64,000 bases of DNA, from the NCBI GenBank assembly GCA_030765645.1, contig JAVCCE010000054.1:3568-67567 (forward strand), read 5' to 3'. Of this stretch, positions 10,449-48,791 are shown piece after piece (positions within the stretch are counted from its first letter, which is position 1; each line of letters opens with the position of its first letter). The position numbers were made by a program, and so were the translations under genes. The notes beneath the pieces are model-generated. The model saw only the letters and a list, made by a program, of their open reading frames with translations, was not told where the DNA came from and made no database searches. Source of the stretch: Candidatus Hinthialibacter antarcticus (lineage in GTDB: Bacteria > Hinthialibacterota > Hinthialibacteria > Hinthialibacterales > Hinthialibacteraceae).

Positions 10449-10465
10449 GTTTTTTTCCTTTATAA

Positions 10466-11752: not shown

Positions 11753-12002
11753 GAGGCGTTCTCCCTATATTGACTGAAAATGGCTTGACGAGTTGAAAAC
11801 AACAGTATTTCTATTTCACAAGTCATTATTCTATTATTACTCACCCAAAACCGTACTTAAGGTTCCAGAGCGTTTATCAATGAATTTATCAGAAGCGCTA
11901 TAAAACTTCAATTGAAGTCCACCGTTTTACGGACTGTCGTTTTTAAAAAATTAGACATCATGCAAGCGAGAATAGGTGGAGAATCCTAAAATACGCAAAA
12001 AT

Positions 12003-12266
12003 GGGGTTCTTCCGTAAATTGGATACTTTATCACAAATTGAACTGCGTTTTTTTTACGCTTTTTCGTAAATCCTTGATCCTTCGCTGCATCAGGCATGGG
12101 TACAACTCTGCTCGCTTCAGTGCGGGCTTTCAAGCCCTTATGCACAGGCGCTCCCAGAATTTTGCCCATGCCTGATTGGTTTGTCAGTTTTTGAAATCCC
12201 GGGGCCTGTTTCTGAATAAAAATCATGGCCATCCATCAATGTAGGTACTCACTTACCGGATGAACC
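12003..12266. repeat. Dispersed intergenic repeat family, copy A (full length, orientation 1: core GGCATGGGTACAACTCTG...CCCATGCC reads on + strand)
   Basis: Near-identical to the reverse complement of copy B (26771..27040) over about 260 bp. Core caggcatgggtacaactctgctcgcttcagtgcgggctttcaagcccttatgcacaggcgctcccag...cccatgcctga. The ORF-track 93-aa ORF 11951..12232 is a translation artefact of this element. Confidence 0.85.
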
Positions 12267-12379
12267 AAAAATGAAAAGGCAAAAACCACGTTTTCTTGTG
12301 ATCTTTGCCTTTTATATCTAAAACCGAAACGAACTCTACATCTTAAAAGGTCTGCCTAAAGATTCTCGCAGAATGGTTG

Positions 12380-22458: not shown

Positions 22459-22488
22459 AGTAAACCTCGATACCCGTTCGGGCCGTTC

Positions 22489-25228: not shown

Positions 25229-25360
25229 TTTTGCCTCCTCGTATTTCAGACAGAACAAGATCACGCAAAAGAGAGACAACGCGGAATGACATTCAAGCGG
25301 CGTTGTACTTGCGTAAGGCGCACAATGAAGCGCGTGAGGAAAAACAGAAAAGGCGGTGGA

Positions 25361-25771
25361 TCAAATCAGAAGAATCGTCGAACGAATTTGAGAGGAAAGC
25401 AGGCTTTGATAATGGAACGGGGCGACTTGAGTCAATTGAGATTTTTGGTAGACGGGCGAAACTCGCACAAAAGAATCGAATCTCAGCGATGGAAGATTGA
25501 GCGAGGGCGGTTCGCATTTGGCGGAACCGAGAACAATGGTTTCGTTTTGGAGTAGAGGGATATCAATACAAGCGCCGCAATTATCTTCTTCCTCTTCTTC
25601 TTGAGAAACGAGACTGACAGAGCGTTGGCTATTTGTTGAAGCGCAACATACTTTCTCCTGCGAATTTTCGAAAGAGAAATGTCCGTCGCTTCCAACACAC
25701 AGAACGGCCCCCGAAAATGGAAACTGTAATAGCGTCGAGACGACAAATACCCAATAGAAGAAACGTTTCAT
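25361..25771 (-). CDS. Small hypothetical secreted protein with Cys pairs (CC, CGAC) and a poly-Glu tract
   Basis: Signal-like MKRFFYWVFVVSTLLQF. Lies directly upstream of, and co-directional with, the czcC-like gene. No recognisable family, and coding status is uncertain. Confidence 0.3.
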   Translation of the reverse strand: MKRFFYWVFVVSTLLQFPFSGAVLCVGSDGHFSFENSQEKVCCASTNSQRSVSLVSQEEEEEDNCGACIDIPLLQNETIVLGSAKCEPPSLNLPSLRFDSFVRVSPVYQKSQLTQVAPFHYQSLLSSQIRSTILLI

Positions 25772-25913
25772 TTTATATCCAGAAGAAAACAAGCGCCGTT
25801 CTCGCCTTTGAAAACGGCTTATTATTTTACAGTGTACACGATTATTTCTGTCACCTTTATCATATACCACCTAATTTCTCATCCACAAGTGTCTGGCATT
25901 AGAAGCGAGGTCA

Positions 25914-30206: not shown

Positions 30207-30522
30207 CCGTTTGCAAAGAGCCTTCCAAAAATTGTTTTGCGAGCGCTTCAGGAAGTTCCTCCGGCGCGCCGATCACAACCCGGATGGAGTATTGATCAAA
30301 CAATTGTTTGGCTTTGATGCCCATGCCGCCGCAAATAATGACGTCTGCGCCTTGCTGGTGCAACCACAAGGGCAAGACGCCAGGTTCATGAGGCGGAGGC
30401 GTGACGAGCGTCTTGCTCGTTACCTGTCCTGCTGAAGAGTCGACTTCAAGCAGAGCAAAATGTTCACAATGGCCAAAATGGGCTGCGAGTTTTTCGTTGA
30501 TGACGGGGACGGCGATTTTCAT
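30184..30522 (-). CDS. NifX/NafY-like dinitrogenase FeMo-cofactor-domain (Nitro_FeMo-Co) small protein
   Basis: MKIAVPVINEKLAAHFGHCEHFALLEV...GADVIICGGMGIKA...SIRVVIG is the canonical domain pattern. The start overlaps the stop of the upstream gene (TAATG). Confidence 0.75.
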   Translation of the reverse strand: MKIAVPVINEKLAAHFGHCEHFALLEVDSSAGQVTSKTLVTPPPHEPGVLPLWLHQQGADVIICGGMGIKAKQLFDQYSIRVVIGAPEELPEALAKQFLEGSLQTGENLCTH

Positions 30523-31439
30523 TAGTTGGCTCCTTTTTTTGAGACTTCACTTGATAAAGTTAGTCGTTGTTTTATGGTTCGCCATAGTTCTCGAATGGCG
30601 ATTGCCGACGGACCATTTGAAAATTCTGTTAATGACATTTGATTGATTTGCGCCTCGACGAAAGAACTGTCATACGGAATTCGCCCAACAACTGGCGTCC
30701 CCAGTTCGATTCCGCGCATGGTGATGCTGTGGGTGATATCCCGGTTGATATCATATTTGTTCACACAAATAACGGCTGGAATATCGAAGTGATGAGACAA
30801 TTCAACCACTCGTTCCATATCATGAAAACCGGATAACGTTGGCTCGGTGACGATAAGAACTAAATCAACGCCTGAAATTGCAGCAATGACGGGACATCCA
30901 ATCCCGGGCGGGCCGTCGATCAATATCCAATCGCAGCCAAGTGATTGGCCCCATTCAAACGCATGTCTCCGAACCAACGTTGATAGTTTTCCTGAATTCT
31001 CTTTCGCGACTTGCAAGGTTGCGTGAGTCATTGGCCCTAAACGTGAGTGAGAGCGAAACCATTCTCCATTTTCTTCTTCCCGAAGTTCGATGGCGCCGAC
31101 GGGACAATACCGGACGCAGACCCCGCATCCTTCACAGGCCAGTGAATCAACTTGATAGACGGTTCCAGCCATTGTCTCTACGGGCTGCACCGCCTCAAAT
31201 GCGCAAAGGTCAAAACAAACCCGGCAATCAATGCACTTGTCTTTTGATATATAGGCTTTTTTTCCACAACGAAACGCTCCGCGTTCAATTACTTGTGGAT
31301 TTAATACGAGGTGCAAATCAGACGCGTCGACGTCGCAATCCGCAACCATCGCATTTTGGGCGAGAGACGCGAGACATGCCGTCAAACTAGTTTTTCCGGC
31401 GCCGCCTTTTCCACTGATTATGCTAATTTGCTTCATCAT
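30522..31439 (-). CDS. MinD/Mrp-superfamily P-loop ATPase with inserted 2x[4Fe-4S] ferredoxin-like domain (COG1149 type), paralog B
   Basis: Walker A GKGGAGKTS. Inserted Cys clusters CIDCRVCFDLC and CEGCGVCVRYCP. 4-nt overlap with the paralog upstream. Confidence 0.8.
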   Translation of the reverse strand: MMKQISIISGKGGAGKTSLTACLASLAQNAMVADCDVDASDLHLVLNPQVIERGAFRCGKKAYISKDKCIDCRVCFDLCAFEAVQPVETMAGTVYQVDSLACEGCGVCVRYCPVGAIELREEENGEWFRSHSRLGPMTHATLQVAKENSGKLSTLVRRHAFEWGQSLGCDWILIDGPPGIGCPVIAAISGVDLVLIVTEPTLSGFHDMERVVELSHHFDIPAVICVNKYDINRDITHSITMRGIELGTPVVGRIPYDSSFVEAQINQMSLTEFSNGPSAIAIRELWRTIKQRLTLSSEVSKKGAN

Positions 31440-32302
31440 GGGCGGCTCTCGCTTCCGACCAATGAAGACGCAACGCTAAAATATATTTCCACCATTGGTT
31501 TTTGCACGCTTGGAACGCTCTTGACAATCAATTCTCCGCGAGAACAGGCCTCAGCGGCGATACGATCATCCGGCACCGAAGCGATAATCGGAATCGCTTC
31601 TCTCGCACAGTAATCATGCGCACAAGAATCGCCGATTCCATCCCGGTTAATGACCACGCCAAACGGAACCTCTAATAATCGCAAAAGTTCAACAATTAAA
31701 TGAAGATCGTGGACGCCGAACGGCGTCGGTTCACAGACAAGAATCACAAAATCACAATCTCGAACCGCTTCAATGGTTGGGCAGGAACAACCCGGCGGGC
31801 AATCAACGATGACAAACGAATTATCATCTGCATACGACTTTACCGTTCGGATCACAGGAACAGCAGACGGTTCTCCGATATTTAGTTTCCCCTGAACAAA
31901 TGCAAAGCCGTCCGCCCATCCCCGCTCAATATCACCAACCGTTCGCTGGCCTTTTGTGATTGCTTTTTCGGGGCATCCACGCCAACAGCCGCCGCATCCA
32001 TGACAGAGATCAGGAAACACCAAAATGTTCTTGCCCACATAAACAATTGCCTGAAACTGACAGATGTCTGCACACTGACCACATTGAGTACATAGGCTGG
32101 GATCATAACTCGGGCAGTTCACATAAACCGGCAATTTTTGATCGAGTATAGGTTTAACAAAGATATGGCAGTTCGGCTCTTCAACGTCGCAGTCAAGCAA
32201 GCAAACTGGAGCGGATGAATAACGAGATGCGATATACGCAAGATTGGCGGCGACGGTCGTTTTCCCGACGCCGCCCTTACCGCTAGCGATTGCAACTTTC
32301 AT
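31436..32302 (-). CDS. MinD/Mrp-superfamily P-loop ATPase with inserted 2x[4Fe-4S] ferredoxin-like domain (COG1149 type), paralog A
   Basis: Walker A GKGGVGKTT. Cys clusters CTQCGQCADIC and CHGCGGCWRGCP. Confidence 0.8.
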   Translation of the reverse strand: MKVAIASGKGGVGKTTVAANLAYIASRYSSAPVCLLDCDVEEPNCHIFVKPILDQKLPVYVNCPSYDPSLCTQCGQCADICQFQAIVYVGKNILVFPDLCHGCGGCWRGCPEKAITKGQRTVGDIERGWADGFAFVQGKLNIGEPSAVPVIRTVKSYADDNSFVIVDCPPGCSCPTIEAVRDCDFVILVCEPTPFGVHDLHLIVELLRLLEVPFGVVINRDGIGDSCAHDYCAREAIPIIASVPDDRIAAEACSRGELIVKSVPSVQKPMVEIYFSVASSLVGSESRP

Positions 32303-32931: not shown

Positions 32932-33828
32932 TTATGCACGGTTGGTTGCAACCGGTGCATCGTAATTTCCGGTGAGAATAAAATCGCCGGTCTTGCATCC
33001 GATGTCCCGTGCGATCACGGGACATTTGGCTTGTAAGAGAAAGAAAATCGGCTTTCGAATATGGCTAAGCGTTTCGTAATTGGCCTGGCCTTTTGCAATA
33101 ATTAAATCGGCGGAAGCAAACCGTTCGCGAAAAATCGGCGAGCAATCATCCAAAATACAGCCAGGCGCATCAGAGCCATTGCCAACAACACGCACCATCT
33201 GGGTCAGCCCTGTTTCCAATGCGTCTTCCATGGTTGCGTCATTAATGATTGGCTTGCCTTTCACTACATAGACAACCTTGTCGAGCGGCATTTGCGAAAG
33301 CAACAATTGGTCAAAAACGATCTCTCCCGCATTGTCGCCAAGAAATAAAATCGTCTTGGCTTCGTTGATCGCCTGTTTAAACAATTCAATCGCTGCGTTT
33401 GAGATATCTGCTGACAAACTCTTTTCAATTGATGCATGGACCGATTCATCTTCAACCGTTGCCGCAGCGCCAAAATCGATAATGTTTCCAGCGATCGCCA
33501 AGCGGACGGCGCACTCCAGTGGGTCCGCCGCGTCATCGACGTAGCGCTTCAGCCGGGGCAACAGTCTCAGCGCAAACTGGTTGAAATATTGTTTGCGTTC
33601 GTAATACGGATCGCTCTGGGTGGTTAATTCACGAATCAAACGGTGTATGCGCTGCCCCATGATCGGCGGAGGCATCGTCAGGTCCATTTCACTCACTTCT
33701 CGTAGCATGTTTCGCAACATCCCTTCGTGAATGCGCTCATCGCTCGATACAAAACGGGCAGTTGCCAGCGCCTGTTTTAAAAAACAAGGGATGCAATCAA
33801 AGTACGTTTTCATTTGCTCTGGCTCCAA
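32932..33828 (-). CDS. DUF89 (ARMT1-like metal-dependent phosphatase family) protein with N-terminal CxxC
   Basis: N-terminus MKTYFDCIPCFLKQALATARF matches the prokaryotic DUF89 start (CxPCxLRQ-like). Length is about 300 aa. Confidence 0.65.
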   Translation of the reverse strand: MEPEQMKTYFDCIPCFLKQALATARFVSSDERIHEGMLRNMLREVSEMDLTMPPPIMGQRIHRLIRELTTQSDPYYERKQYFNQFALRLLPRLKRYVDDAADPLECAVRLAIAGNIIDFGAAATVEDESVHASIEKSLSADISNAAIELFKQAINEAKTILFLGDNAGEIVFDQLLLSQMPLDKVVYVVKGKPIINDATMEDALETGLTQMVRVVGNGSDAPGCILDDCSPIFRERFASADLIIAKGQANYETLSHIRKPIFFLLQAKCPVIARDIGCKTGDFILTGNYDAPVATNRA

Positions 33829-34180
33829 CGCCGTCTTGGTCTTCGGCGCTTTTTTCTTTTAACTTTCCGGCTTTGAATTGTTTGAGGGCCTGTACGACCG
33901 ATTCCTCTGAAGAGAGATACCCCTTGATGTTCGCCGCCGACAGCGTTGTCAGGGCTTTAGGGCCGATGTTTCCGGCTATCACCACTTTGACTCCATGAGT
34001 AGCAAGCATTTTCACTGTCCCAATGCCGGCCCCGTGATCCATTTCATTATTCTCGTCATTTTCAAGCGCGTTAAATTCTTCGCTATCCGAATCGAAAATA
34101 ATAAAATACGCAGACCGGCCTAAACGTGAATTAACCCGGCTAAAGATATCCATGCCTTGTGAAGCGATTGCAATTTTCAT
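33797..34180 (-). CDS. NifX/NafY-like Nitro_FeMo-Co domain small protein (second copy)
   Basis: MKIAIASQGMDIFSRVNSRLGRSAYFIIFDSD...GVKVVIAGNIGPKALTTLSAANIKGY. Start 34180 has a GGAGAA RBS. Confidence 0.7.
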   Translation of the reverse strand: MKIAIASQGMDIFSRVNSRLGRSAYFIIFDSDSEEFNALENDENNEMDHGAGIGTVKMLATHGVKVVIAGNIGPKALTTLSAANIKGYLSSEESVVQALKQFKAGKLKEKSAEDQDGVGARANENVL

Positions 34181-34931
34181 AATGATTCTCCATTGGGATA
34201 TGCGGCTTACGCTCCGAAACGGGCGTGGTGAATTGAACCGGTAAGAAGTGTGGAGACGGCTCTCCACGATTTGAAGATGGATCACAGCGCTCTTCTAAGC
34301 ACAGTGGATTAATCAGCCGGGCTGGAATTCCCACTACGATTTCGTCGTTTTGAATAAAACCCATCTCGCGAGACGTTGGACACCCCATCGAAAGACAAAT
34401 CGTATTTCGCTGATAGGATTTTGATAACACATTGCCGCAGGTGGCCAGGAAAGTGGAAATTTGAACGCTCAACTCGTTTTGAAACATCCGCTGCCAGAGC
34501 CGAACCAACTTCATTGCTGTTCTGGGAGAGCAATATGACATGACAACATCGGGTTGCGACACGGCGCCCATTTCAAGCGCATATACACGGTCCAATCGTG
34601 GCGTAATTTCAAGAATTGAGCGAACCGAGATCCGCGTCATTCCAGTTTCTTCAGCAATGTGCTCAATCAGCGCGTTCTCGTCGACGTTCGGGTCTCCCAA
34701 ACTTCGTCTTCCACCCATGCAACTAACTTGAGAAACAGGCAGAATAAATGATTCGTTTTTTGCATTCCAAATGGCTTCGCAAACTCTCAAATTTTTCTGT
34801 GTATGCAAGGTTTTTGAATCATCGGATGGATTAATTTTCACGCCAATCCATTCGCCGCCAAATTGTTTTTTGAGTAAATCGAATAATTGTAAATGAGTCT
34901 GCGGCATAGTTACCCCTGTTTGTGTAAGCAC
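34140..34931 (-). CDS. Cys-rich hypothetical protein, possibly DUF169-like
   Basis: About 255-263 aa with multiple conserved-looking Cys (SCMGGRRS, CSPRT, CGNV, CLSMGCPTSRE). The size and context fit DUF169 (COG2043), but the assignment is tentative. The start is either 34931 or 34907. Confidence 0.4.
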   Translation of the reverse strand: MLTQTGVTMPQTHLQLFDLLKKQFGGEWIGVKINPSDDSKTLHTQKNLRVCEAIWNAKNESFILPVSQVSCMGGRRSLGDPNVDENALIEHIAEETGMTRISVRSILEITPRLDRVYALEMGAVSQPDVVMSYCSPRTAMKLVRLWQRMFQNELSVQISTFLATCGNVLSKSYQRNTICLSMGCPTSREMGFIQNDEIVVGIPARLINPLCLEERCDPSSNRGEPSPHFLPVQFTTPVSERKPHIPMENHYENCNRFTRHGYL

Positions 34932-35433: not shown

Positions 35434-36813
35434 CTACTGCATTTTGCTAGTGTTGATGTGTTGCCGACCATCTGTTTCAGGGAGTAGAATCCCGAGCGAT
35501 TTAATCTTTCGAAACAGCGTCGTCGGGTGGATGCCCAGCGCTTTGGCTGCTGCCGTGCGGTTGCCGTGATACTGATTGAGCGTGTTGGTGATGTGAATGG
35601 TTTCGAGTTTTTGCAAGGACAAACTCTTTTGATCATTCCATTCATACGCCTTGTTGCTGTCGGTGAGGTACGGAGGCAAATGGGTCGCTTCGATCAAGGG
35701 GCCTCTACAAAGAACGAAGGCGTGTTCGATGATGTTTTCTAATTCTCGAATATTGCCCGGGAACGGATACGTCATAAGAGCAGCCATGACTCTATCTGAT
35801 ACATGAGAAATTGCTTTTTCGTGCACCCGGTTAAACGACGAGATGAAGTGTTGAACTAACAAGGGGATGTCTTCACGACGCTCTCGAAGAGGCGGAATTT
35901 CAATGCGAATCACATTGACGCGATAAAACAAATCTTCACGGAATTTACCCCGGCGCACTAATTGGTGCAAGTCTTTGTTCGATGCAGCAATGACCCGAAC
36001 GTCAACCGTCTGTGACTTGGTTGCGCCAAGAGGCTCAAACGTTTTTTCTTGCAAAAAGCGCAAGAGACGGACTTGCATGGCAGGCGAGACATCACCAATT
36101 TCATCGAGAAAAATCGTCCCGTGGTCCGCTAGAGCAAACCGCCCGGGCTTATCGCGTTTCGCGTCGGTAAACGCCCCCGCTTTATAACCAAACAATTCTG
36201 ATTCAAGCAACGTATCCGGCAGGGCGCCGCAATTGATGGCAATAAACGCCTTGTTGTTTCGGGAGGATAAATGATGAATCGCGCGCGCAAATAATTCTTT
36301 CCCGGTACCGCTTTCACCTATTAGTACAGACGTTGCATCGCTGGCGGCAACTTGTGGGAGCACATCGAAGATTCGCTTCATGCCGGCGCTGTGTCCGACA
36401 ATATCTTCAAAGGAGTATTTCTCGTACAACTTCTTCCGCAGTTCTTCTACTTGGCTTAAATCGCGAAACGTCTCCACCCCGCCGACAACAGCGCCCCGGG
36501 AATTTTTGAGCAAAGCCGTTGAGATACTGATCGGAATCTGGTTGCCTTTCAGGTCGATAATATAGATTGTTCTATTGATGATGGGGGCGCCTGTTTTAAG
36601 GGTATGTTTGAGGGCGCAATGGCTTTCGCAGATACTCGAGCGAAATACCTCACAACAGGGCTTGCCGACAGCGTCTTGGCGTGAAATCCCAATGATTTTT
36701 TCTGCTGCGCGGTTGAATGACGTTACATTCCAGTTGCGATCAACGGTAAATACGCCATCAGCGATAGAATCAAGAATGATGTCGGTTGCGCTGTTTTCTG
36801 GTTGTTCAAACAC
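35434..36813 (-). CDS. Sigma-54-dependent transcriptional activator (bEBP) with N-terminal PAS sensor carrying a Cys-rich motif, and no receiver domain
   Basis: PAS region (ILDSIADGVFTVDRNWNVTSFNRAAEKIIG). Cys cluster GKPCCEVFRSSICESHCALKH. AAA+ sigma-54 interaction domain (GESGTGKELFA, GAFTDA, ESELFGY). C-terminal Fis-type HTH. Confidence 0.85.
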   Translation of the reverse strand: MFEQPENSATDIILDSIADGVFTVDRNWNVTSFNRAAEKIIGISRQDAVGKPCCEVFRSSICESHCALKHTLKTGAPIINRTIYIIDLKGNQIPISISTALLKNSRGAVVGGVETFRDLSQVEELRKKLYEKYSFEDIVGHSAGMKRIFDVLPQVAASDATSVLIGESGTGKELFARAIHHLSSRNNKAFIAINCGALPDTLLESELFGYKAGAFTDAKRDKPGRFALADHGTIFLDEIGDVSPAMQVRLLRFLQEKTFEPLGATKSQTVDVRVIAASNKDLHQLVRRGKFREDLFYRVNVIRIEIPPLRERREDIPLLVQHFISSFNRVHEKAISHVSDRVMAALMTYPFPGNIRELENIIEHAFVLCRGPLIEATHLPPYLTDSNKAYEWNDQKSLSLQKLETIHITNTLNQYHGNRTAAAKALGIHPTTLFRKIKSLGILLPETDGRQHINTSKMQ

Positions 36814-38996: not shown

Positions 38997-40142
38997 TTAC
39001 ACTTTTTCCATCGAAAAAAGCAATATATAGCGGTCATCGTTGTGGCGGACTCCAATCATGTTTATCTGGCCGAATGTCGTGAGTAATGATGTAGACAGAT
39101 GAAGATATTTTTTATCAAATTTCTCCGACCCTTCATCTCCATTGTTGTATACATGAATTTCAACCCGAAACGTTTCGTCTTCAGCGACGCCCGACTTACA
39201 TTGCACCTCCACAGCGTAATTATCCCCAAGAATTGTACGAAAGAAGCCGGGTATCGAACTCTCTGCGGCGAGCATTGCTTCCGTTTCAACTTGGTACACT
39301 TCGGTTTTTTGCAATGAGCGAATTATCGAATCGAGTTTTGTTTTTGGAAAAATTTGGCTTAATTCACTGTTTAAATTTTCGATACTTTCTTTCATAAAAT
39401 GATGTTCTTTAATTTTTGAGTCAGAATCAGTATTTTTTGAGGTTCTCACATATTCCGTAATTCGTTCTGCTTCTTGCCGCGTTCTCGCGAACCCATGTAC
39501 TTCAAATTTTGTGATCTTGTCTTCGCGGTCTGTTTCAACCTCACGGAATAATAAATTTTCAAAATTTTCTCTATGATTGATTAGCCAGCGAGGGTATTTG
39601 TTTCTTGTTCGGCCTTCGTCCCAACATTTACCCCAGATCGAAAATTCAAAGGGATAGTTCTTTAATTTTGGATGGATATCACGCTCAACAAACGCCAGGC
39701 GATATAGAACAGGCGCGTCTTCTTTGATTGGGTTTTGAAGTTTCGATAAGAAGTTTTGGATCTGTTTGTGTTCAGCGTCAGTCGCTAAAACAACAATGAA
39801 ATTGTTTTCAACGTCATATTGCACGGGTGAGGTGGGCGAGGGCTGCTCGCTGGTCGTCTCTTTTGTGATTGATGCGCTAGCAATTAATTCATCGTTGATC
39901 GCAGAATCGGGATAGCGAATGGTATGATTGAATGAAATGAATTGAGAAAGAATTTCGACATAACCGGGTTGAAATGTTGAAGGCGCTGTATAGATTCGGA
40001 TCAGTAATTCTTCGGGAACGGAGTCTTCTGGTTTACTGTCTTGCGCAACAGCGTCATTGAATGAAACAATCGGCGCATCATTCATCGTAAAAACGACGAA
40101 ACACAAAAGAAGAACAACGGCAGCGAGAAGCGTCTTCATCAA
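38997..40142 (-). CDS. Hypothetical secreted protein (last gene of the ECF sigma operon)
   Basis: Signal peptide MMKTLLAAVVLLLCFVVFT. No recognisable domain. 4-nt overlap with the upstream anti-sigma-like gene. Confidence 0.4.
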   Translation of the reverse strand: MMKTLLAAVVLLLCFVVFTMNDAPIVSFNDAVAQDSKPEDSVPEELLIRIYTAPSTFQPGYVEILSQFISFNHTIRYPDSAINDELIASASITKETTSEQPSPTSPVQYDVENNFIVVLATDAEHKQIQNFLSKLQNPIKEDAPVLYRLAFVERDIHPKLKNYPFEFSIWGKCWDEGRTRNKYPRWLINHRENFENLLFREVETDREDKITKFEVHGFARTRQEAERITEYVRTSKNTDSDSKIKEHHFMKESIENLNSELSQIFPKTKLDSIIRSLQKTEVYQVETEAMLAAESSIPGFFRTILGDNYAVEVQCKSGVAEDETFRVEIHVYNNGDEGSEKFDKKYLHLSTSLLTTFGQINMIGVRHNDDRYILLFSMEKV

Positions 40143-40576
40143 TATTTCCAGACGACTTGAATATCATCTTCTAAATAGCCATGAATCATAAAACTGCTTT
40201 TCTCTGGCTGATCTGACGATTGATTCGAGATTAAGGTTGGGTGTTCTATTTTGGGAAACAAAGCAACGAGGCCGGGGTCATCGACGATATGTTGCCCCGG
40301 CATCAAGACCGGGCCAGCATATAAGCCTGTCTCTTGTGAGTTTTTATTTAGCATCAAAGAATAACTTGTTCCGATCCCAACGAAGACAATGACGGCTCCC
40401 AACAAAAAAACATTCAATGGTTTGCCAGCGATGCGCCCCCAAAAAGTTCGGCGCGACCAGGATTGTTCGAACAGTCTGCGAAATTGGTTCACTTCGTCAG
40501 AAGAGACGCTTTCATCCAAGGCGGAATCAAACCGTTTCTTCATCTCAAGATTGATTTGATTTTGTATGTCTTTCAT
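40139..40576 (-). CDS. Probable membrane-anchored anti-sigma factor
   Basis: 145 aa with a single TM segment (LNVFLLGAVIVFVGIGTSY). Lies immediately downstream of the ECF sigma factor gene. Confidence 0.5.
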   Translation of the reverse strand: MKDIQNQINLEMKKRFDSALDESVSSDEVNQFRRLFEQSWSRRTFWGRIAGKPLNVFLLGAVIVFVGIGTSYSLMLNKNSQETGLYAGPVLMPGQHIVDDPGLVALFPKIEHPTLISNQSSDQPEKSSFMIHGYLEDDIQVVWKY

Positions 40577-40592
40577 TGCGATTCCCCAGTAG

Positions 40593-41135
40593 CTAAACAG
40601 AAAATTGTTCGCGTAATGACTCCGTGACGCGAAAGACGCGTGTGCGCGCGGTTTTTACCTGGCAATTCATAATTTCTGCAATTTCCTGATATTTCATATC
40701 TTCAAGGTAACGTAGAGAAAAAGCCGTCCGAAAGGCTTCGGGCATGTCTTGGATATGTTGAATGATTTTTTCAAGCCATTCATTTTGCTCGGCATAATGG
40801 ATCGGGATGAGTTGGGCGGGGTATAACAATTGGGTTAACAGGTTTACATCCAAATTTTTCTGTCTTTGTGATCGGCGAATATGGTCGACGCACAGATTAT
40901 AACAAATTGAAGCCGACCATGATTTAAATGAACTGCCTTCTTGATATCTGTTCAAATTCTGAAAAATTTTAAGCCATACTTCCTGGCTTATTTCTTCTGA
41001 TGTGGTTTTGCACAATGTCGTTCGATAGGCAAGGCGGTATAGAAACAACGCATATCGAACAAACAGCTCTTTTCCGGCTGCGGCGTTATTTGTCTTACAC
41101 AGTATTACGAGTTGATCGTCAGTCAGATTGTTCAC
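40593..41135 (-). CDS. ECF-type RNA polymerase sigma-70 family factor
   Basis: Region 2 (QEVWLKIFQNLNRYQEGSSFKSWSASICYNLCVDHIRR) and region 4 (LRYLEDMKYQEIAEIMNCQVKTARTRVFR). Confidence 0.85.
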   Translation of the reverse strand: MNNLTDDQLVILCKTNNAAAGKELFVRYALFLYRLAYRTTLCKTTSEEISQEVWLKIFQNLNRYQEGSSFKSWSASICYNLCVDHIRRSQRQKNLDVNLLTQLLYPAQLIPIHYAEQNEWLEKIIQHIQDMPEAFRTAFSLRYLEDMKYQEIAEIMNCQVKTARTRVFRVTESLREQFSV

Positions 41136-41167
41136 ATTTCACCCTGTAATCGCATCTTCCTATCTAT

Positions 41168-41192
41168 AACGATTCAAGCAAAAAAACGTTCC
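41168..41192 (-). promoter_or_regulatory. Candidate ECF-type promoter for the sigma/anti-sigma operon (autoregulatory); minus strand reads GGAAC-N16-CGTT
   Basis: + strand aacg(41168-41171)...gttcc(41188-41192), which on the minus strand is GGAACgtttttttgcttgaatCGTT, 33-57 nt upstream of the sigma start codon. Shares the 11-mer ggaacgttttt with the divergent promoter. Confidence 0.5.
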
Positions 41193-41227
41193 TAAAAACA
41201 ATAGGTTATAGGAATTTCACATATTTG

Positions 41228-41252
41228 GGAACGTTTTTCTCTCACCAGCGTT
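41228..41252 (+). promoter_or_regulatory. Candidate ECF-type promoter for the TolC-HlyD-ABC efflux operon: GGAAC-N16-CGTT
   Basis: ggaac(41228-41232) gtttttctctcaccag cgtt(41249-41252), 38 nt upstream of ATG 41290. Its -35/spacer start is identical to the minus-strand motif. Confidence 0.5.
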
Positions 41253-41289
41253 TAAGGTAAAGAAATCAAATAGCTGGATTGCGATCTAA

Positions 41290-43167
41290 ATGAATTTTAA
41301 ATTGTGTAACCAATTTTCCGCTTATTTTATTGTTATCTGTTTGTTTGCCGGGTGTTCTACACAACATCACCGTGAATCAGTAGACCGCGCTGCTTACGAA
41401 GCAATACAAGAGTATCAACGAGCCAATCTGGGTGAATCGGAACCGTTTACGGTTGAAAAACCGTCAATCGAATTGCGGCAACGAATCATGCAATCCCAAC
41501 CGATTCAATTTTCTCACCCGGCGTCAATCAACGTGAATCATCTAGAACCGATTGAACACTGGCCCAGCGATGGATATATAACCCCGGCAACGGTTTCTGA
41601 AATCTTAACCGCAGCAACTTCACCCATTTCACTCAACTTAGTTGACGCGCTACAGATTGCTGCGAAAAATAGCCGTGAATACCAAGGCCAAAAAGAGCAA
41701 GTGTTTCAAGAAGCGCTCAATCTTGATCTGCAAGAAGAACAATTTCGCGCCAGTTTTTTTAATGGCATTGACGCGCAGTATGAGAACGACCGGACAGATA
41801 CTGATTCGCCCGATGGAATTGTGACCGAAAATTTTGGCGCGGGTTTCAATCCATCAATTAGCAAGACGTTCTTATCCGGCGCGCAACTCTCCGCCCAATT
41901 GGGTTGGGACCTGGCGATGCTTCTCAGCCCGGGCAGCGTCTCATCAAAATCGTTATTCGGCGACGCTTCGATTACGGTCCCGTTGCTTCGCGGCGCTGGC
42001 CGCCATATTGTTGCAGAGCCTTTGACCCAAGCGCAACGGAATATGGTGTATGCCATTTATGAATTCGAACGCTTCAAGCGGTCATTTGCGGTTTCGATTG
42101 CGGACGAATATTTATCCGTTCTTCAACGCATCGACGAAGTAAAAAATGCTGAGCAAAATTATAAAAGTTTAATTACGTCCGCGCGCCGCGCGCAAATGAA
42201 TTTACGGACAGGAAAAATATCACCTGTTGAAGTCGATCAGGCCTATCAGAACGAATTGTCTGCGCGAAACCGCTGGGTCAGTTCACGCCAAGCGTATGCA
42301 AACGCAATCGACTCGTTTAAGTATGAATTGGGCCTGCCGATTGATGCCTCGATTGAATTAAACCGGGATGAGTTTGTTCGGTTGGCGCAGTCATCTGAAA
42401 CCATTATTGCAGGCGCCACCTCGTTACAACGAGATGAAGAAGTGCCTCCTGCGGACGCGCCGATTGTGTTGCAGGAGCCGACGAGCCGTAACGCAGGTAA
42501 GATGGAGATCGAACCAATCGAAGCGATCCGGTTGGCATTTGAAAACCGCTTGGATTTAAGGACGGTGCAGGGCCGCGTATATGACGCTCAACGAAAAGTT
42601 GTCGTTGCAGCGGACGGGCTCAGACCGGAGATCACATTGTTTGGAAGCGTATCAACCGGACAAAGCCGCGGCATCGGTTCTGCTGACCGCGCTGATTCAC
42701 AAGTGTTAGATTTGGGCCGCGGCCTTTATTCCGCGCTACTCACCGTAGACTTGCCCACAGAGCGAACTCGCGAGGCCATCGAGTTTAGACGAAGTTACAT
42801 TGACCTAGAGCGCTCGGTGCGCGACCTGCAAGAACTCGAGGGGCGCATCAAACTTGATATTCGAAATCAGTTACGAATTTTGGTCGATGCTCGAGAGAGT
42901 CTGCGTATTCAAGTTCTCTCCGTTAACCTCGCTGAGCAACGCGTTCAAAGCACCGAATTATTTATGGAAGCCGGGCGGATCGAAATTCGAGATCTATTAG
43001 ACGCGCAAGAAGACCTTTTGTCCGCTCAAAATGCTTTAACATCAGCAATGGTGAACTACCGGATTACCGAACTCGAATTGCAACGCGACCTAGGCGTGTT
43101 AAAAGTCAACCACGAAGGAATCTGGCAAGAATACAACCCGGAGATGAATTCCAATGAGTCAAGTTAA
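41290..43167 (+). CDS. Outer membrane efflux protein (TolC-like OMF) lipoprotein
   Basis: Lipobox LFAGCST. Two-repeat OEP architecture with long coiled coils. Confidence 0.75.
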   Translation: MNFKLCNQFSAYFIVICLFAGCSTQHHRESVDRAAYEAIQEYQRANLGESEPFTVEKPSIELRQRIMQSQPIQFSHPASINVNHLEPIEHWPSDGYITPATVSEILTAATSPISLNLVDALQIAAKNSREYQGQKEQVFQEALNLDLQEEQFRASFFNGIDAQYENDRTDTDSPDGIVTENFGAGFNPSISKTFLSGAQLSAQLGWDLAMLLSPGSVSSKSLFGDASITVPLLRGAGRHIVAEPLTQAQRNMVYAIYEFERFKRSFAVSIADEYLSVLQRIDEVKNAEQNYKSLITSARRAQMNLRTGKISPVEVDQAYQNELSARNRWVSSRQAYANAIDSFKYELGLPIDASIELNRDEFVRLAQSSETIIAGATSLQRDEEVPPADAPIVLQEPTSRNAGKMEIEPIEAIRLAFENRLDLRTVQGRVYDAQRKVVVAADGLRPEITLFGSVSTGQSRGIGSADRADSQVLDLGRGLYSALLTVDLPTERTREAIEFRRSYIDLERSVRDLQELEGRIKLDIRNQLRILVDARESLRIQVLSVNLAEQRVQSTELFMEAGRIEIRDLLDAQEDLLSAQNALTSAMVNYRITELELQRDLGVLKVNHEGIWQEYNPEMNSNESS

Positions 43168-44680
43168 ATCAAATAAAGCGGGAATCCTGATCGTGCTGGC
43201 GGTATTATGCGTTGCTGCAGGTTTTGGTTATACCTCAATGCAATCGAATGGTTCGATCAATCCTGATTTGATTAATGTCCCTGTGTTTCAAGTGAAGCAA
43301 GGGCCGCTAAAAATTAGCGTAGTCGAATCAGGAACGATTCGACCGCGCGATGAAGTCATCCTACGGAACGATACAGATGACGACACCACAATTGTTTCGA
43401 TTATTGCTGAAGGGGCTGAAGTCAAAAAAGGCGACCTGATCGCTGTGCTTGACGCTTCTGCAAAAGAAGAACGCCTCGTTGCTCAACAACTTGATCTTCA
43501 GAACGATGAGGCCGAATTAATTAGTTCCCGCGAGAACCTCGATATTGTGAGAAATCAGGCGCAATCGGATATTGAAAAAGCAGAATTGTTGTTTAAGTTT
43601 TCAAAGCAGGACCTGAAAAAATATTTGAAAGGCGAATATCCAAAACAAATTAAAGAAGCGGAAGTCGCAATTACTCTCGCGTCTCAAGAATATGCGTTGG
43701 CAAAAGACGATTTGAAGTGGTCAGAAGTATTATTTAAAAAGAAATATCTCGCCGAATCGGAGCTCCAACAAGATGAATTGTCCGCAAAACGGGCGGAATT
43801 AGATTTGGATTTGGCGAGAGAAGATTTTGAGTTGCTTAAAAATTACACGCACATTCGACAACTCGACCAATTGAATAGCGATGTAAAACAGAATGAGATG
43901 GAATCCGAACGGACTAAGAGCCGGGCGTCGGCGAATATTGTTGAGGCGTCCGCCCGCTATTTTTGGAGACAAGAGCGCGTCCAGCGTCAAAGCCGATATG
44001 TGCGCGAATTAGAGACAGAAATCAAAGCAGCAAAAATATACGCCCCCATTGACGGCTTGGCGTTATACGCATCGAGCGTCATTGAAGATTGGGAGGACGA
44101 CGAAGACCGCATTCGGGTTGGCGCTCTGGTCGATGAAGAGCGTGAGATTATCTTTTTGACGGCGGCGAAAGATTACAACATTGATATTCTGATTCAAGAA
44201 ACGGATTTAAATAAAATTAAACAAGGCCAGCCGGCCAAGATCACGGTCGACGCCTTGCCCGGCGCGAATTTCGTAGGCGTCGTTAACAAAGTATCTCACT
44301 TGCCCAATCAACGACAGCAATACTTAAACCCCAATTTGAAAGTCTATAGCACTGACATCGAAATTCAGGGCGAATCAGAGTCGCTGCGTAATGGGATGAG
44401 CTGCATGGTTGAGATTGTTGTCGAAGAATATGAAAACGCAGTCTATGCGCCGATTCAAGCGGTCGTGAAAGTGAATGGCGTAAGCACTGTTTTTGTTAGA
44501 AACGACAACACGGTCGAGGCGCGTCCAGTAACAATCGGCCTCGATAACAACAGCATGGTCCATATTAAAGAAGGGCTAAGCGAAGGCGAGTATGTTTTAT
44601 TAAAACCGCCGCTAAATTTTCAAAACGAAGATGAGTCAAACGCAACCGCCGAAACGATTGCAAGTTTAACCAATGAATAA
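43154..44680 (+). CDS. HlyD/MacA-family periplasmic adaptor (membrane fusion protein) with extended coiled coil
   Basis: N-terminal TM anchor, long alpha-helical hairpin region, and C-terminal beta-barrel (GMSCMVEIVVEE...). Overlaps the OMF gene. Confidence 0.75.
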   Translation: MSQVKSNKAGILIVLAVLCVAAGFGYTSMQSNGSINPDLINVPVFQVKQGPLKISVVESGTIRPRDEVILRNDTDDDTTIVSIIAEGAEVKKGDLIAVLDASAKEERLVAQQLDLQNDEAELISSRENLDIVRNQAQSDIEKAELLFKFSKQDLKKYLKGEYPKQIKEAEVAITLASQEYALAKDDLKWSEVLFKKKYLAESELQQDELSAKRAELDLDLAREDFELLKNYTHIRQLDQLNSDVKQNEMESERTKSRASANIVEASARYFWRQERVQRQSRYVRELETEIKAAKIYAPIDGLALYASSVIEDWEDDEDRIRVGALVDEEREIIFLTAAKDYNIDILIQETDLNKIKQGQPAKITVDALPGANFVGVVNKVSHLPNQRQQYLNPNLKVYSTDIEIQGESESLRNGMSCMVEIVVEEYENAVYAPIQAVVKVNGVSTVFVRNDNTVEARPVTIGLDNNSMVHIKEGLSEGEYVLLKPPLNFQNEDESNATAETIASLTNE

Positions 44681-45386
44681 AGAGAGACGCAACACATCTG
44701 AAATCGAAGCAGAACTTCAAGCGATCTCAAAAACGTATGCCATGGGCGACCAAGAAGTTCATGCATTGAACCAGGTTGATCTTTCTTTCTATCAAGGAGA
44801 TTTTTGGGCCATCCTGGGGGCGAGTGGTTCGGGAAAAAGCACGTTATTAAATCTATTGGGCTGCCTTGATCGCCCGACAGCAGGCAACTATGTCCTGGGT
44901 GGGGCGGCTGTTCAGGATATGGCGGATGATGAACTCAGTGAAATTCGTCTTCGTAAAATAGGCTTCATCTTTCAGAGTTTTAATTTGATCCAACAATTAA
45001 CGGTCGAAGAAAACATTCAACTTCCATTGTATTACCAGGAAATGGACGAAGAACAAAGCCGCGAAAAAGCGAGGAGCCTCGCTGAATCGGTCGGATTGGG
45101 AGGCCGGATTCAACATATTCCATCTGAACTTTCAGGCGGCCAGCAACAACGCGTGGCGGTCGCCCGCTCGCTGGCCAATGACCCCCAAATTATTTTAGCC
45201 GATGAACCCACCGGCAACCTCGATTCTGCAACCAGTAAAGAAATTATGAACTTGTTGTGCAGCCTGAATGAGCAAGGCAAGACCATTATCATGGTGACTC
45301 ACGAACATGACATCGCCTCCTATACCAAACAACAGTTATACATGAAAGACGGAAAAGTCGAACGAACCGAAGGGGCGCTTGAATGA
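44673..45386 (+). CDS. ABC transporter ATP-binding protein (MacB/LolD/FtsE-like)
   Basis: Walker [13 protein letters not shown], signature [15 protein letters not shown], Walker [12 protein letters not shown]. Confidence 0.9.
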
Positions 45387-46651
45387 AAAGCAGCCGTATC
45401 TTTGTAGAAGTTCAAATGGGCGTCAAGAATTTGATGAACCACAAATTACGTTCACTGCTAACCATGCTGGGGATCGTGTTCGGCGTGTGCAGCGTAATAT
45501 CCATGCTGGCGGTAGGGGAGGGGGCCAACCAGGATGTGATGCAGCAGATACAAAAACTGGGCAGCAACAACATCATTATTAATACAATCAAACCTATCGA
45601 GAGTGAAACATCAAAAGAAGTATTGGCGCGGATGAATGTGTATGGATTAAAGTACGCCGATCATACCCGGATCAAAGATAGTTTTGTTCATATTACTCAG
45701 GCAGTCCCCGTGAAAATTGTGCGCAATGAAGCCCAGTTGGGTTCGCGTACGCTGGATATCCGAGTGTTAGGCGTAACACCGGATTGGTTTGATCTGGTCA
45801 AGCGAAATCTCATCGCAGGCCGCACATTAACCGGGAGTGATTTAGAAACGCATTCGAAAATCGTTGTTTTGACTGAATACGGCGCCCGCAGATTGCTTGC
45901 GGCCGAAGAAAGCATCGGCGCCCACTTGCGTATTGGCGGCGTTGTATTTGAAGTGGCGGGCATCGTGCAAAGCGAAGGCAGCCAAGGCAGTAATGTTCAA
46001 ACCCCAGATCAACAGATCGACGCTTACATGCCCATCAATGTTGCTCGAAACCGTTTCGGCGATGTCACCCTTAAGCGAACGGCTGGCGCGGAAATCCGTG
46101 AAAAAGTTGAACTCCATCAAATTATTGTCCAAGTTGACCGCTTAGAAAATGTCGAGAGTGCAGCTGCTGGAATTGAATATGTATTAGATCGGTTTCACAA
46201 ACAGTCTGATTATCAAATTAATGTACCTCTTGCTTTGCTCAATCAAGCGCGTCAAACCAAGCGAACATTTAATATCGTCTTAGGAACCATCGCAGGCATC
46301 AGTTTGTTGGTCGGCGGCATCGGCATCATGAACATTATGCTGGCGGCGGTGACAGAACGCACCCGGGAGATCGGCGTCAGACGGGCCATCGGCGCGAAAC
46401 GAAAACAAATTATCCGGCAGTTTCTGATTGAAACAATTACGTTATCTGTCAGCGGAGGACTCGTGGGGGCGATGGTCGGAGTTTTGATTCCAAAAGCCAT
46501 TACCCATTTCGCCAATATGCCGACCGTGATAACGATTGAGAGCCTCATTCTTTCAATTGGGATCAGCCTGAGCGTTGGGATCATCTTTGGGCTGTATCCC
46601 GCGATTCGCGCCGCCAATTTAGACCCAATCATCGCGCTGAGACATGAATAA
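45383..46651 (+). CDS. ABC transporter permease, FtsX/MacB-type (periplasmic core domain + FtsX 4-TM domain)
   Basis: N-terminal TM segment, large periplasmic domain, C-terminal FtsX-like TM bundle. 4-nt overlap with the ATPase gene. Confidence 0.85.
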   Translation: MKSSRIFVEVQMGVKNLMNHKLRSLLTMLGIVFGVCSVISMLAVGEGANQDVMQQIQKLGSNNIIINTIKPIESETSKEVLARMNVYGLKYADHTRIKDSFVHITQAVPVKIVRNEAQLGSRTLDIRVLGVTPDWFDLVKRNLIAGRTLTGSDLETHSKIVVLTEYGARRLLAAEESIGAHLRIGGVVFEVAGIVQSEGSQGSNVQTPDQQIDAYMPINVARNRFGDVTLKRTAGAEIREKVELHQIIVQVDRLENVESAAAGIEYVLDRFHKQSDYQINVPLALLNQARQTKRTFNIVLGTIAGISLLVGGIGIMNIMLAAVTERTREIGVRRAIGAKRKQIIRQFLIETITLSVSGGLVGAMVGVLIPKAITHFANMPTVITIESLILSIGISLSVGIIFGLYPAIRAANLDPIIALRHE

Positions 46652-46913: not shown

Positions 46914-48791
46914 ATGATTCGCTATTTCAGTATGATAGTTATCGCATTGTTACTTGCGGCGCCTCAACTATCGAATTCTGCAACCAACAACACTGGCAAT
47001 AACCCTTGTTTTCTCGTTTTACAGGTCGCGTCTAACGCAAATGTGTTTTGGGCGCAAGATGGAATTGATATCGGCGTCGATGTTGGCGCTGACGGCAGCT
47101 ATGAATATTGGCTTTCTGAAGATACATCCGTCACCGGGTTGTGGACCACGACCAAAGGCGTCAGCGATTTTGACGCTGAATCCCCTTCGGCCGACAACTG
47201 GCGCACCATCATCATTAACCTGGAACAATACGCTGGAGAAGAAGCGCGCATTCAAATTCGTGACAATAATACGCAAGACTACATCGCTATCAACGCGATC
47301 CGCTTGAACAACGCAGACGGCGTCACCATTCCCAACGGCGTTCCTAACGGTTTTTTTGAAGACGCGTCTTTGGCTGGTTGGTCGGTTGCCAGCGGTGATA
47401 TGACTGCCGCTGATTTAATCACTGAAAACGCTGGCGCGGCGCCTTATGGCAGCGGTTATCTCAGCACCAGCAACGCAGGTACGGTTGTGTTGGAGTCGGA
47501 TGTTTTCGCTCTCGAACCAGTTAACAGTTTCATCTATGGAACCTACGCTGGGCCGGTTTCGTCCCGATGGGATATCGAAGGTCTCAACGGCAGCGATAAT
47601 GGCGCCTATGTCTACGTTGACGTCGGAACCGACTCGGCTGATCCTGACGGTGAATTTACTGCGGGAACCGATGTTCCTTTGTATGGCTACTTTTGGCAAA
47701 ACGCTGACGGCGCTCATGAAGTTTTTGTGATCAATACCTCCGGCCTCGAAGGCCGCCGCGCTCAATTTGTCGCAGTCGATAATTCCGAATCACATGCGAT
47801 TTCATTGGATGCGATCCGCATGAATTATGATCACAGTGTGATTGTTAACGGCGGTTTTGAAGACGGCTTCGAAGGCGGCGTTGTCCCGGAAGGATTTGAC
47901 GGAACCAGCGTTCGTCCGTTAACCACTCATCCCAGCGGTGGATTGCCCGGCTGGACGATAAACAACTTCGGCGATGATCCAGAGGCAGTGTTCACATATT
48001 TCGCCGGTCCCGGCGGTGATTTTTCCCGCTCTGATTTTGTTTGGGTCGGTTCTGGAAATTTCGTTGATGGAGCGAACGACCAAGGGCTTCAATTTGGAAT
48101 CGAATTACGTTCGGATGTTTTTGTGATTCAACCGGTTCCTGCGGCGGACAGCAGCGTGTTTTTGTCTTTTAATTCAGCCCAGGTCAGCAACCGAATTGAT
48201 TCGGCCCCCGATCCCGCCGACCCTGACGATATGGGTGTGTTCAGCACGATCCAAATGCAAGTCGATGTCGACAGCAACGGCGCGTTTGAAGACGCCGACG
48301 ATTTTGTTTATCGCAATCAAAACCAAGGGATGTCATGGAACCGCGAACAACGCGGCGAGTTGGATGAATGGCATTTCCCTGAATATCGCATGTACATTGA
48401 TGAGGCGCACCAGGGCTTGACCGCCCGCCTCTATATCGCCGACTTACAAACCGGCGGCTGGGGTTGGATGGGCGTTGACGATTTTTATTTCTGGGACGGA
48501 GACAGCGCAGACTTGGCGTTCCCCAACTCTGACTTCGAAGAAGGCACTTTAAACAACTGGGTCGAAGACAGTGAGATTATGAATTTCGACAGTTGGCTGT
48601 CGGCGACGCCGGACAATGTCGGCGGCGATGCGTTACATAACGTGCTCAATGATGTGATCTCATGGGTTGACGGAAACTATGCCGTTGATTCAAACCAATC
48701 CGGCGATGGTAATGTCGGCGAGTTAACATCTGAGCCATTCACCATCCCGAGCTTGCAGACGTCGCCTGTTCCAAACTGGTCTGTGTATTAA
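46914..48791 (+). CDS. Hypothetical secreted Asp/Gly-rich protein with 3-4 internal repeats of a CBM4/9-like module
   Basis: Signal peptide. Repeated module boundaries NGFFEDASLAGW / NGGFEDGFEGG / NSDFEEGTLNNW (the NGxFE.G...W start typical of CBM4_9) and repeated ...AINAIRLN / ...SLDAIRMN ends. Confidence 0.45.
   Translation: MIRYFSMIVIALLLAAPQLSNSATNNTGNNPCFLVLQVASNANVFWAQDGIDIGVDVGADGSYEYWLSEDTSVTGLWTTTKGVSDFDAESPSADNWRTIIINLEQYAGEEARIQIRDNNTQDYIAINAIRLNNADGVTIPNGVPNGFFEDASLAGWSVASGDMTAADLITENAGAAPYGSGYLSTSNAGTVVLESDVFALEPVNSFIYGTYAGPVSSRWDIEGLNGSDNGAYVYVDVGTDSADPDGEFTAGTDVPLYGYFWQNADGAHEVFVINTSGLEGRRAQFVAVDNSESHAISLDAIRMNYDHSVIVNGGFEDGFEGGVVPEGFDGTSVRPLTTHPSGGLPGWTINNFGDDPEAVFTYFAGPGGDFSRSDFVWVGSGNFVDGANDQGLQFGIELRSDVFVIQPVPAADSSVFLSFNSAQVSNRIDSAPDPADPDDMGVFSTIQMQVDVDSNGAFEDADDFVYRNQNQGMSWNREQRGELDEWHFPEYRMYIDEAHQGLTARLYIADLQTGGWGWMGVDDFYFWDGDSADLAFPNSDFEEGTLNNWVEDSEIMNFDSWLSATPDNVGGDALHNVLNDVISWVDGNYAVDSNQSGDGNVGELTSEPFTIPSLQTSPVPNWSVY

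Follow-up and report, generated by a model that had tools for sequence, protein, structure and literature searches.

Predicted back-to-back ECF-type promoters between a sigma factor module and a MacAB-TolC-like efflux operon in Candidatus Hinthialibacter antarcticus

The sigma factor operon, the efflux operon and the gap between them

Candidatus Hinthialibacter antarcticus is the type metagenome-assembled genome (MAG) of the candidate phylum Hinthialibacterota (OLB16) and originates from Ace Lake, Antarctica; the paper describing it makes no mention of sigma factors or efflux (PMC9324843). The sigma factor and the proteins of 145 and 380 aa discussed below each match an NCBI protein of this organism at 100% identity. 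We analysed a 64-kb stretch of this genome, referred to here as the window, in which an operon that begins with a gene for an extracytoplasmic function (ECF) sigma factor diverges from an operon for a tripartite efflux pump. The gap between the GTG start codon of the sigma gene (41135, minus strand) and the ATG start codon of the outer-membrane factor (OMF) gene (41290, plus strand) measures 154 bp. The initial annotation, made from the sequence alone, had described divergent, near-identical motifs of the ECF promoter type within this gap, and both copies were confirmed by reading of the sequence and by pattern searches. In order of position, the genes and predicted promoters are the following.

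38997-40139, minus strand: exported protein of 380 aa, hydrophobic at its N-terminus (signal or anchor) and of a fold without known match, present at 13 of the 13 orthologous loci compared below
40139-40576, minus strand: candidate membrane anti-sigma factor of 145 aa, beginning 16 nt after the sigma gene and next to it at 13 of 13 loci
40593-41135, minus strand: ECF (group 4) sigma factor of 180 aa with a GTG start; Pfam Sigma70_r2, Sigma70_r4_2 and Sigma70_ECF
41168-41192, minus strand: predicted autoregulatory ECF promoter of the sigma operon, reading GGAACGTTTTTTTGCTTGAATCGTT; -35 element GGAAC at 41192-41188, 16-nt spacer, -10 element CGTT at 41171-41168
41228-41252, plus strand: predicted ECF promoter of the efflux operon, reading GGAACGTTTTTCTCTCACCAGCGTT; -35 element GGAAC at 41228-41232, 16-nt spacer, -10 element CGTT at 41249-41252
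41290-43167, plus strand: OMF lipoprotein (TolC/OEP family) of 625 aa; Pfam OEP at E=2e-22, lipobox LFAGC, TIGR01844 at 48.6 bits, which is below the cut-off
43154-44680, plus strand: periplasmic adaptor (HlyD/MacA/YknX-like) of 508 aa; Pfam HlyD_3, RND_mfp at 91.7 bits against a cut-off of 94.9, weak match to MacA
44673-45386, plus strand: ATP-binding cassette (ABC) ATPase of the MacB/LolD type, a separate polypeptide of 237 aa; Pfam ABC_tran, best NCBIfam matches the N-terminal half of MacB and LolD
45383-46651, plus strand: MacB-type permease of 422 aa; MacB_PCD at 1e-30 and FtsX at 4e-23, aligning to MacB residues 258-648

The two predicted promoters have in common the 11-mer GGAACGTTTTT, and the full pattern is GGAACGTTTTT-N10-CGTT, which spans 25 nt (11+10+4). 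The initial annotation had counted 11 nt between the 11-mer and CGTT, which was one too many, and its 16-nt spacer and 25-nt span were right. It had also placed the motifs 38 and 33 nt before the efflux and sigma genes, figures that are differences between coordinates; from the end of CGTT to the start codon there are 37 nt on the efflux side (ATG) and 32 nt on the sigma side (GTG). Transcription of the sigma operon is predicted to start about 6-8 nt past CGTT, which would leave a leader of about 25 nt. The -35 elements stand back to back, 35 bp apart (41193-41227), so that the two promoters point outward.

The initial annotation had proposed a search for further sites, and within the window the exact pattern matched only the two copies in the gap, when 0.00 matches were expected (none of 100 dinucleotide-preserving shuffles contained one). 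The same two sites alone were recovered when up to two mismatches were allowed. Relaxing the pattern to GGAAC-N16-CGTT gave four sites; the additional two, at 579-603 and 27650-27674, lie inside open reading frames (ORFs) and are consistent with the chance expectation of 0.73. A weight matrix built from 24 orthologous sites detected no further site of at least 14 bits in the window. Searches for a sigma-70-like promoter in the gap and for a terminator behind either operon were negative, and Rfam gave no matches over the whole window.

The sigma factor contains only regions 2 and 4 (Sigma70_r2 at residues 24-91 and Sigma70_r4_2 at residues 122-169), which identifies it as an ECF sigma factor. 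Among NCBIfam cut-offs it passes only that of the superfamily model, TIGR02937 sigma70-ECF (82.8 bits against 42.9), and it falls below those of the equivalog models, including SigW (95.2 against 209), RpoE (67.6 against 236), the SigM family (91.4 against 148), SigY and SigE. Relatives outside its own small family are at most 28% identical. The nearest solved structures are those of Bacillus subtilis SigW (5wuq), Pseudomonas aeruginosa AlgU, and sigma-E of Escherichia coli and of Mycobacterium tuberculosis. In region 4.2, the recognition helix TARTRVFR lines up with TVRSRIFR, the sequence in both E. coli sigma-E and P. aeruginosa AlgU. Region 4 of E. coli sigma-E was crystallised on GGAACTT and reads GGAAC (PDB 2H27, as cited in PMC10012870), and promoters of Corynebacterium glutamicum sigma-H and sigma-E have the experimentally mapped consensus GGAAC-N17-18-cGTT (PMC10012870). 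Because the helix matches those of sigma-E and AlgU and a GGAAC/cGTT consensus is known for such sigma factors, the motif in the gap is of the kind expected for this protein. Autoregulation is the usual arrangement for ECF sigma factors, and in silico a promoter with an AAC-type -35 and a CGT-type -10 element was found before the ECF gene itself.

Conservation of the motifs across orthologous loci

The sigma factor has few close relatives: a search of 5.8 billion protein clusters returned only 17, at 42-100% identity, and the next-best matches were at 28%. A scan of metagenome contigs gave a single match at 28% identity, which is unrelated. We compared 13 orthologous loci, which comprise the window, six loci on genome contigs (L003-L008) and six obtained by exact-protein look-up (L030-L035), taking 8 kb on either side of each relative for a total of 217 kb. 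The three genes of the sigma module (sigma factor, 145-aa protein and 380-aa protein) lie side by side in 13/13 loci, and each of the 13 carries GGAAC-N16/17-CGTT upstream of the sigma gene and on its strand. In 11 loci, 22-48 nt separate this motif from the sigma start codon. The second, opposite-strand copy stands before the pump operon in all ten loci that have a divergent pump. Seven of these encode the four-gene operon of OMF, adaptor, ATPase and permease (the window, L003, L004, L030, L031, L034 and L035), and in the other three the divergent operon begins with the adaptor (L006, 2867-5654; L007, 3870-6859; L033, 225-1802). Two loci, L008 and L032, have neither a divergent pump nor a second copy of the motif.

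Across the 217 kb, GGAAC-N16/17-CGTT occurs 27 times; 24 matches fall in gaps upstream of sigma genes and three fall elsewhere, against 3.3 expected by chance. The spacer is 16 nt long in 18 of the 24 sites and 17 nt long in the remainder. Two features that the search did not require are nevertheless retained, namely the fourth base of CGTT, in 24/24 sites, and a run of T after GGAAC(G/A). The spacer sequences differ freely and are unrelated between sites, with GGAAC, the T-run and CGTT held constant, and the efflux-side copies have a conserved downstream block of their own, CGTTyTAAkGTAA. When eight of the gaps, with a mean identity of 37%, were aligned by MAFFT without guidance from the motif, all 24 invariant columns fell within four promoter blocks. 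Nine of 11 loci have 28-42 bp between the two -35 elements, five of them exactly 35 bp, and the outliers have 17 and 135 bp; this steadiness may reflect a constraint on two polymerases that share the A+T-rich DNA between them. Taken together, the conservation of the motif before the sigma genes (13/13) and before the divergent pumps (10/10), the unguided alignment and the region 4.2 helix support the initial annotation in its proposal that two ECF-type promoters tie the sigma operon to the efflux operon.

We weighed these data against the reading of the two 11-15-nt arms as an inverted-repeat operator for a dimeric transcription factor. The sole repeat in the gap is indeed an inverted pair (arms at 41182-41196 and 41224-41238, 15 nt, 93% complementary), and the AACGTT within the arm is palindromic. 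What is conserved among the loci, however, is GGAAC and CGTT at a fixed distance of 16-17 nt on the strand that faces each gene, not symmetry. GGAAC may be followed by any of the four bases, so that the palindrome is broken; the two copies lie between 17 and 135 bp apart; and in L008 and L032 one copy alone remains. Because the pattern is bipartite, has fixed spacing, lies on the correct strand and tracks the presence of the genes, it is that of a promoter and not of a palindromic operator, and we regard an operator here as highly improbable.

A second alternative is that only the sigma-side promoter works: the efflux-side copy would have arisen through a local inverted duplication, and some other, unrecognised promoter would transcribe the pump. 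The identical 11-mer is unusually long, as it would be after a recent duplication, and the divergent copy of one locus (L005) faces no recognisable gene. Against this, the efflux-side copy is kept in every locus with a divergent pump and is gone where the pump is absent, and its spacers are unlike those of the sigma side, with the separate CGTTyTAAkGTAA block downstream. No sigma-70-like promoter was seen in the gap either, and we consider this explanation very unlikely.

The main rival accepts both sites as genuine ECF promoters and assigns them to another ECF sigma factor, for example an RpoE-like regulator of envelope stress, which would make the adjacent sigma factor a target and not the driver. 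GGAAC and CGTT are common to several ECF groups, as illustrated by the -35 element of E. coli sigma-E and by actinobacterial sigma-E and sigma-H, which have overlapping regulons (PMC10012870), and the portion of the genome inspected for paralogues amounts to 64 kb. Against this, the motif travels with orthologues of this sigma factor that are 42-100% identical in 13/13 loci, and elsewhere in the 217 kb it does not exceed chance. Control by another sigma factor would also set aside both the autoregulation that is usual for ECF factors and a recognition helix in the sigma factor itself that suits a GGAAC -35 element. We therefore judge it unlikely that a different sigma factor drives these promoters, and we favour their use by the adjacent one.

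Proteins of the pump and of the sigma module

The initial annotation had called the plus-strand genes a TolC-HlyD-MacB-like exporter, and these calls hold in Pfam and NCBIfam, which identify an OEP protein, a HlyD-type adaptor, an ABC ATPase and a MacB_PCD+FtsX permease. Each of the four genes shares 4-14 nt with its neighbour (14 nt between those for the OMF and the adaptor), and orthologues of the adaptor match the Pfam models Beta-barrel_YknX and YknX_C. The presence of a MacB_PCD+FtsX permease with an ATPase, an adaptor and an OMF in one operon is characteristic of MacAB-TolC-type systems. Scores against the models of the E. coli pump are far below the equivalog cut-offs (MacB 243.7 and 186.3 bits against 966; MacA 38.1 against 342; TolC 21.2 against 495), which indicates that the components are homologues and not orthologues of the E. 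coli proteins. As judged from its domain content, the operon is a MacAB-TolC-type tripartite ABC pump in which ATPase and permease are split.

A 625-aa ORF on the plus strand at 46914-48791, which has no Pfam or NCBIfam match, was considered as a fifth member of the operon and rejected, as it lies 263 nt downstream and is not syntenic in L030, L031 and L034. The window also contains a second, unrelated efflux operon on the minus strand (19345-25279 and 25361-25870), which encodes an OEP protein of 478 aa, a HlyD protein of 453 aa and an AcrB protein of 1037 aa and is preceded by a 169-aa ORF without a Pfam match. The matrix scan of the window found no ECF motif upstream of this operon.

The 145-aa protein encoded after the sigma factor has no family match in Pfam or NCBIfam. 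A single transmembrane helix divides it into about 50 aa on the cytoplasmic side and a periplasmic domain of about 70 aa. Thirteen orthologues share an invariant cytoplasmic FRxxFExxW motif and the periplasmic motifs LMPGQ, LFPxVxHPT and HGY. The C-terminus reads QVVW(E/K/Q/N)(Y/L) with hardly any variation and may be a tail for partner binding or protease recognition. The family has two forms. Most members are short (141-147 aa) and lack His/Cys ligands; the long form (184-191 aa), represented by P0035-P0037 on the deepest branch, has an additional 40-45 N-terminal aa that hold HxxxCxxC, the signature of zinc anti-sigma (ZAS) factors. The window protein and most of its orthologues start past the position of this motif, which places them outside the ZAS class (class I) as defined. 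In a profile search of PDB with the N-terminus of the long form, the best match was the zinc motif of RsiW, at a non-significant E=0.18. A PDB profile match of the 145-aa protein to Sec63 (E=0.005) was judged spurious. An AlphaFold2 model of a long-form orthologue has four N-terminal helices, with a predicted template modelling score (pTM) of 0.31, and gave no matches in Foldseek. We propose that the 145-aa protein is probably an anti-sigma factor that derives from a ZAS-type ancestor and was shortened in most members of the family.

The third gene of the sigma operon encodes the 380-aa protein, and its ATG overlaps the stop codon of the anti-sigma gene by 1 nt. In agreement with the initial annotation, its product is an exported protein without a known family: it has no match in Pfam or NCBIfam and no detectable relative outside its own family of about ten members. 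Only eight homologues were present among the 5.8 billion clusters, and among 1.84 billion representatives, searched exhaustively with a profile, there were three full-length clusters. Other profile matches were to giant proteins, in many short stretches at positions of about 100-150, and were dismissed as probably compositional. The AlphaFold2 model has a predicted local distance difference test (pLDDT) score of 57.7 and is confident only for residues of about 155-250; Foldseek with this model gave no match at E<0.001 and weak similarities to ferredoxin/ACT-like folds. Because the protein is kept in the loci without a divergent pump (L008 and L032) and is translationally coupled to the anti-sigma gene, we favour a signalling partner over a cargo of the pump, and by analogy with CnrX or RseB it may act as a periplasmic sensor or co-regulator. 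As far as the searched collections indicate, both the 380-aa protein and the shortened anti-sigma factor are restricted to this lineage.

Directly after the 380-aa orthologue of L008, at 9503-13777 on the plus strand, lies a 1424-aa ORF in which a full AcrB transporter of the resistance-nodulation-division (RND) family (residues 6-1041) is joined to a C-terminal ABC ATPase domain (residues 1158-1297). The ORF may be a genuine, if unusual, RND-ABC fusion, or else an assembly or frameshift artefact. In both cases, the sigma module of L008, which is the most divergent, adjoins a pump of the RND type and not of the MacB type.

Genes for sulfatases, rhamnosidases and further enzymes of polysaccharide degradation occupy the remainder of the window, in agreement with the description of the organism (PMC9324843). 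One minus-strand ORF of 1181 aa (3655-7200) fuses a sulfatase (51-479) to a family-78 alpha-L-rhamnosidase (492-1152), a combination that fits the inferred specialisation on sulfated polysaccharides (PMC9324843). A minus-strand cluster at 30522-32302 and 32932-34931 encodes two CbiA/ParA-type P-loop proteins with 4Fe-4S ferredoxin inserts, an ARMT1-like phosphatase, a protein with a dinitrogenase FeMo-cofactor-binding domain and a DUF169 protein; it sits downstream of a PAS sigma-54 activator (35434-36813).

A proposed regulatory circuit and its relation to known systems

Based on these findings, we consider it likely that the back-to-back promoters are read by the adjacent ECF sigma factor and jointly drive the module of sigma factor, anti-sigma factor and 380-aa protein and the MacAB-TolC-like pump. 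What the analysis shows is the motifs with their orientation and conservation, the families to which the genes belong and the synteny; from these we infer that the adjacent sigma factor, not a paralogue, uses both sites. As long as no signal is present, the sigma factor would be kept at the membrane by the single-pass protein. A signal in the envelope or periplasm would be sensed by the periplasmic domain of the anti-sigma factor, probably together with the 380-aa periplasmic partner, and would free the sigma factor, whose complex with RNA polymerase would then fire both promoters. The first promoter would transcribe the genes for the sigma factor, the anti-sigma factor and the 380-aa exported protein, and the second the four-gene operon of OMF, adaptor, ATPase and permease, so that module and pump would rise together; that the genes within each operon overlap or nearly abut was counted in favour of this proposal. 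As the first promoter would drive both sigma factor and anti-sigma factor, the sigma factor would enhance its own synthesis and, by way of the anti-sigma factor, also be subject to negative feedback. The pump would then expel the offending compound or keep it out.

Several observations weigh against this proposal. The sigma-side motif is about 283 nt from the start codon in L004 and 96 nt in L008. The output of the circuit is not uniform, as L006 and L007 encode an adaptor followed by a MacB-type permease and have neither an OMF nor an ATPase gene nearby, and the divergent operon of L033 also lacks an OMF, on a contig that ends just past the adaptor. In L005 (1-664), a well-formed divergent motif, GGAACGTTGGGGTTGTATCTGCCGTT, is followed by 640 bp to the contig end in which there is no recognisable ORF or pump homologue, and this motif may be an orphan promoter or belong to a decayed locus. 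Since several ECF groups share the GGAAC/CGTT consensus, a paralogous sigma factor could read the sites. Finally, the 145-aa protein has no match to an anti-sigma family in Pfam (to E<=10) or NCBIfam and no zf-HC2 domain, and its assignment is based on position, topology and the ZAS-like motif of three longer orthologues.

The additional interval in L004 (6645-6925) consists of about 280 bp of G+C-rich DNA between the sigma-side motif and the sigma start and contains short complementary stretches such as CCCCCTTATGCAAGGGGG. The repeat finder gave no long inverted repeat in this interval. It looks like an inserted element, because the other loci have 22-48 nt at this position.

SigW of B. subtilis is autoregulated and held by a single-pass anti-sigma factor of the zinc type, and it recognises the -35 element TGAAAC. 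The SigW-dependent yknWXYZ operon encodes a MacB-type pump with an adaptor and protects against a peptide toxin (PMC3210768; PMC5985334). The window system resembles SigW-RsiW and yknWXYZ in that SigW is both the best solved relative and the best NCBIfam match of the window sigma factor, in the prediction of an ECF-driven pump of the MacB type, and in an adaptor whose orthologues match the beta-barrel and C-terminal models of YknX. The window sigma factor is not an orthologue of SigW, as it scores 95 bits against a cut-off of 209. The systems also differ in the -35 element, which is GGAAC in the window, and in the pump, which in the window includes an OMF, as in diderms, and is divergently encoded beside the sigma gene. 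Furthermore, candidate anti-sigma factors of the window type mostly lack the zinc motif, and the third gene has no counterpart in the SigW system.

In the cnr system, the CnrYXH module and cnrCBA are both under promoters of the ECF sigma factor. The window locus shares with CnrYXH-cnrCBA a sigma factor, a short membrane anti-sigma factor (in the window a candidate, with a cytoplasmic segment of about 50 aa) and a putative periplasmic partner beside a tripartite efflux operon, and CnrH is a distant match to the window sigma factor (E=2.8e-6, against 3e-27 for SigW). In contrast to the cnr system, the window pump is of the ABC/MacB type and not RND, the operons are divergent and not in tandem, and no link to metals is indicated. 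Neither a CnrX-like sensor nor a CnrY-like anti-sigma factor was found at the window locus, so the resemblance is one of architecture only. Within the ECF classification, group ECF291 (CnrH of Cupriavidus metallidurans) has a full efflux operon in its neighbourhood, and ECF258 and ECF234 are also associated with ABC transporters (PMC7826278).

The promoters of actinobacterial sigma-E and sigma-H and of E. coli sigma-E have the same core elements as those described here, with a conserved region 4.2 helix, but differ in that the spacer in the window family is mostly 16 nt and a T-run follows GGAAC(G/A). Similarly, the pump has the same set of components as E. coli MacAB-TolC, P. aeruginosa PvdRT-OpmQ and Anabaena DevBCA-TolC (PMC5985334). 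The ATPase and permease are separate polypeptides, as are DevA and DevC and YknY and YknZ, whereas E. coli MacB is fused, and the window OMF and adaptor, at 625 and 508 aa, are of unusual length.

A bolder possibility, which we regard as doubtful, is that the sigma factor, the shortened ZAS-derived anti-sigma factor and the 380-aa protein make up an ECF signalling group of three components that has not been classified before and is limited to the Hinthialibacter lineage. The 380-aa protein would then be a new periplasmic sensor or co-anti-sigma factor, detecting the substrate of the pump to which the module is linked in each member (mostly of the MacB type, and of the RND type in L008).

Because the motifs are conserved in every relative found, we conclude that this is probably a real, if ordinary, stress-response circuit, an autoregulated ECF module that brings a known pattern to a poorly known phylum. 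The pattern is otherwise a textbook one and leaves the general understanding of ECF regulation unchanged. The 25-nt promoter, together with the sigma/anti-sigma pair, might serve as an orthogonal switch. The analysis also draws attention to a tiny, lineage-restricted family of periplasmic proteins that always accompanies the sigma/anti-sigma pair, and it provides a comparatively validated prediction of an ECF promoter and regulon in a candidate phylum without a cultured member.

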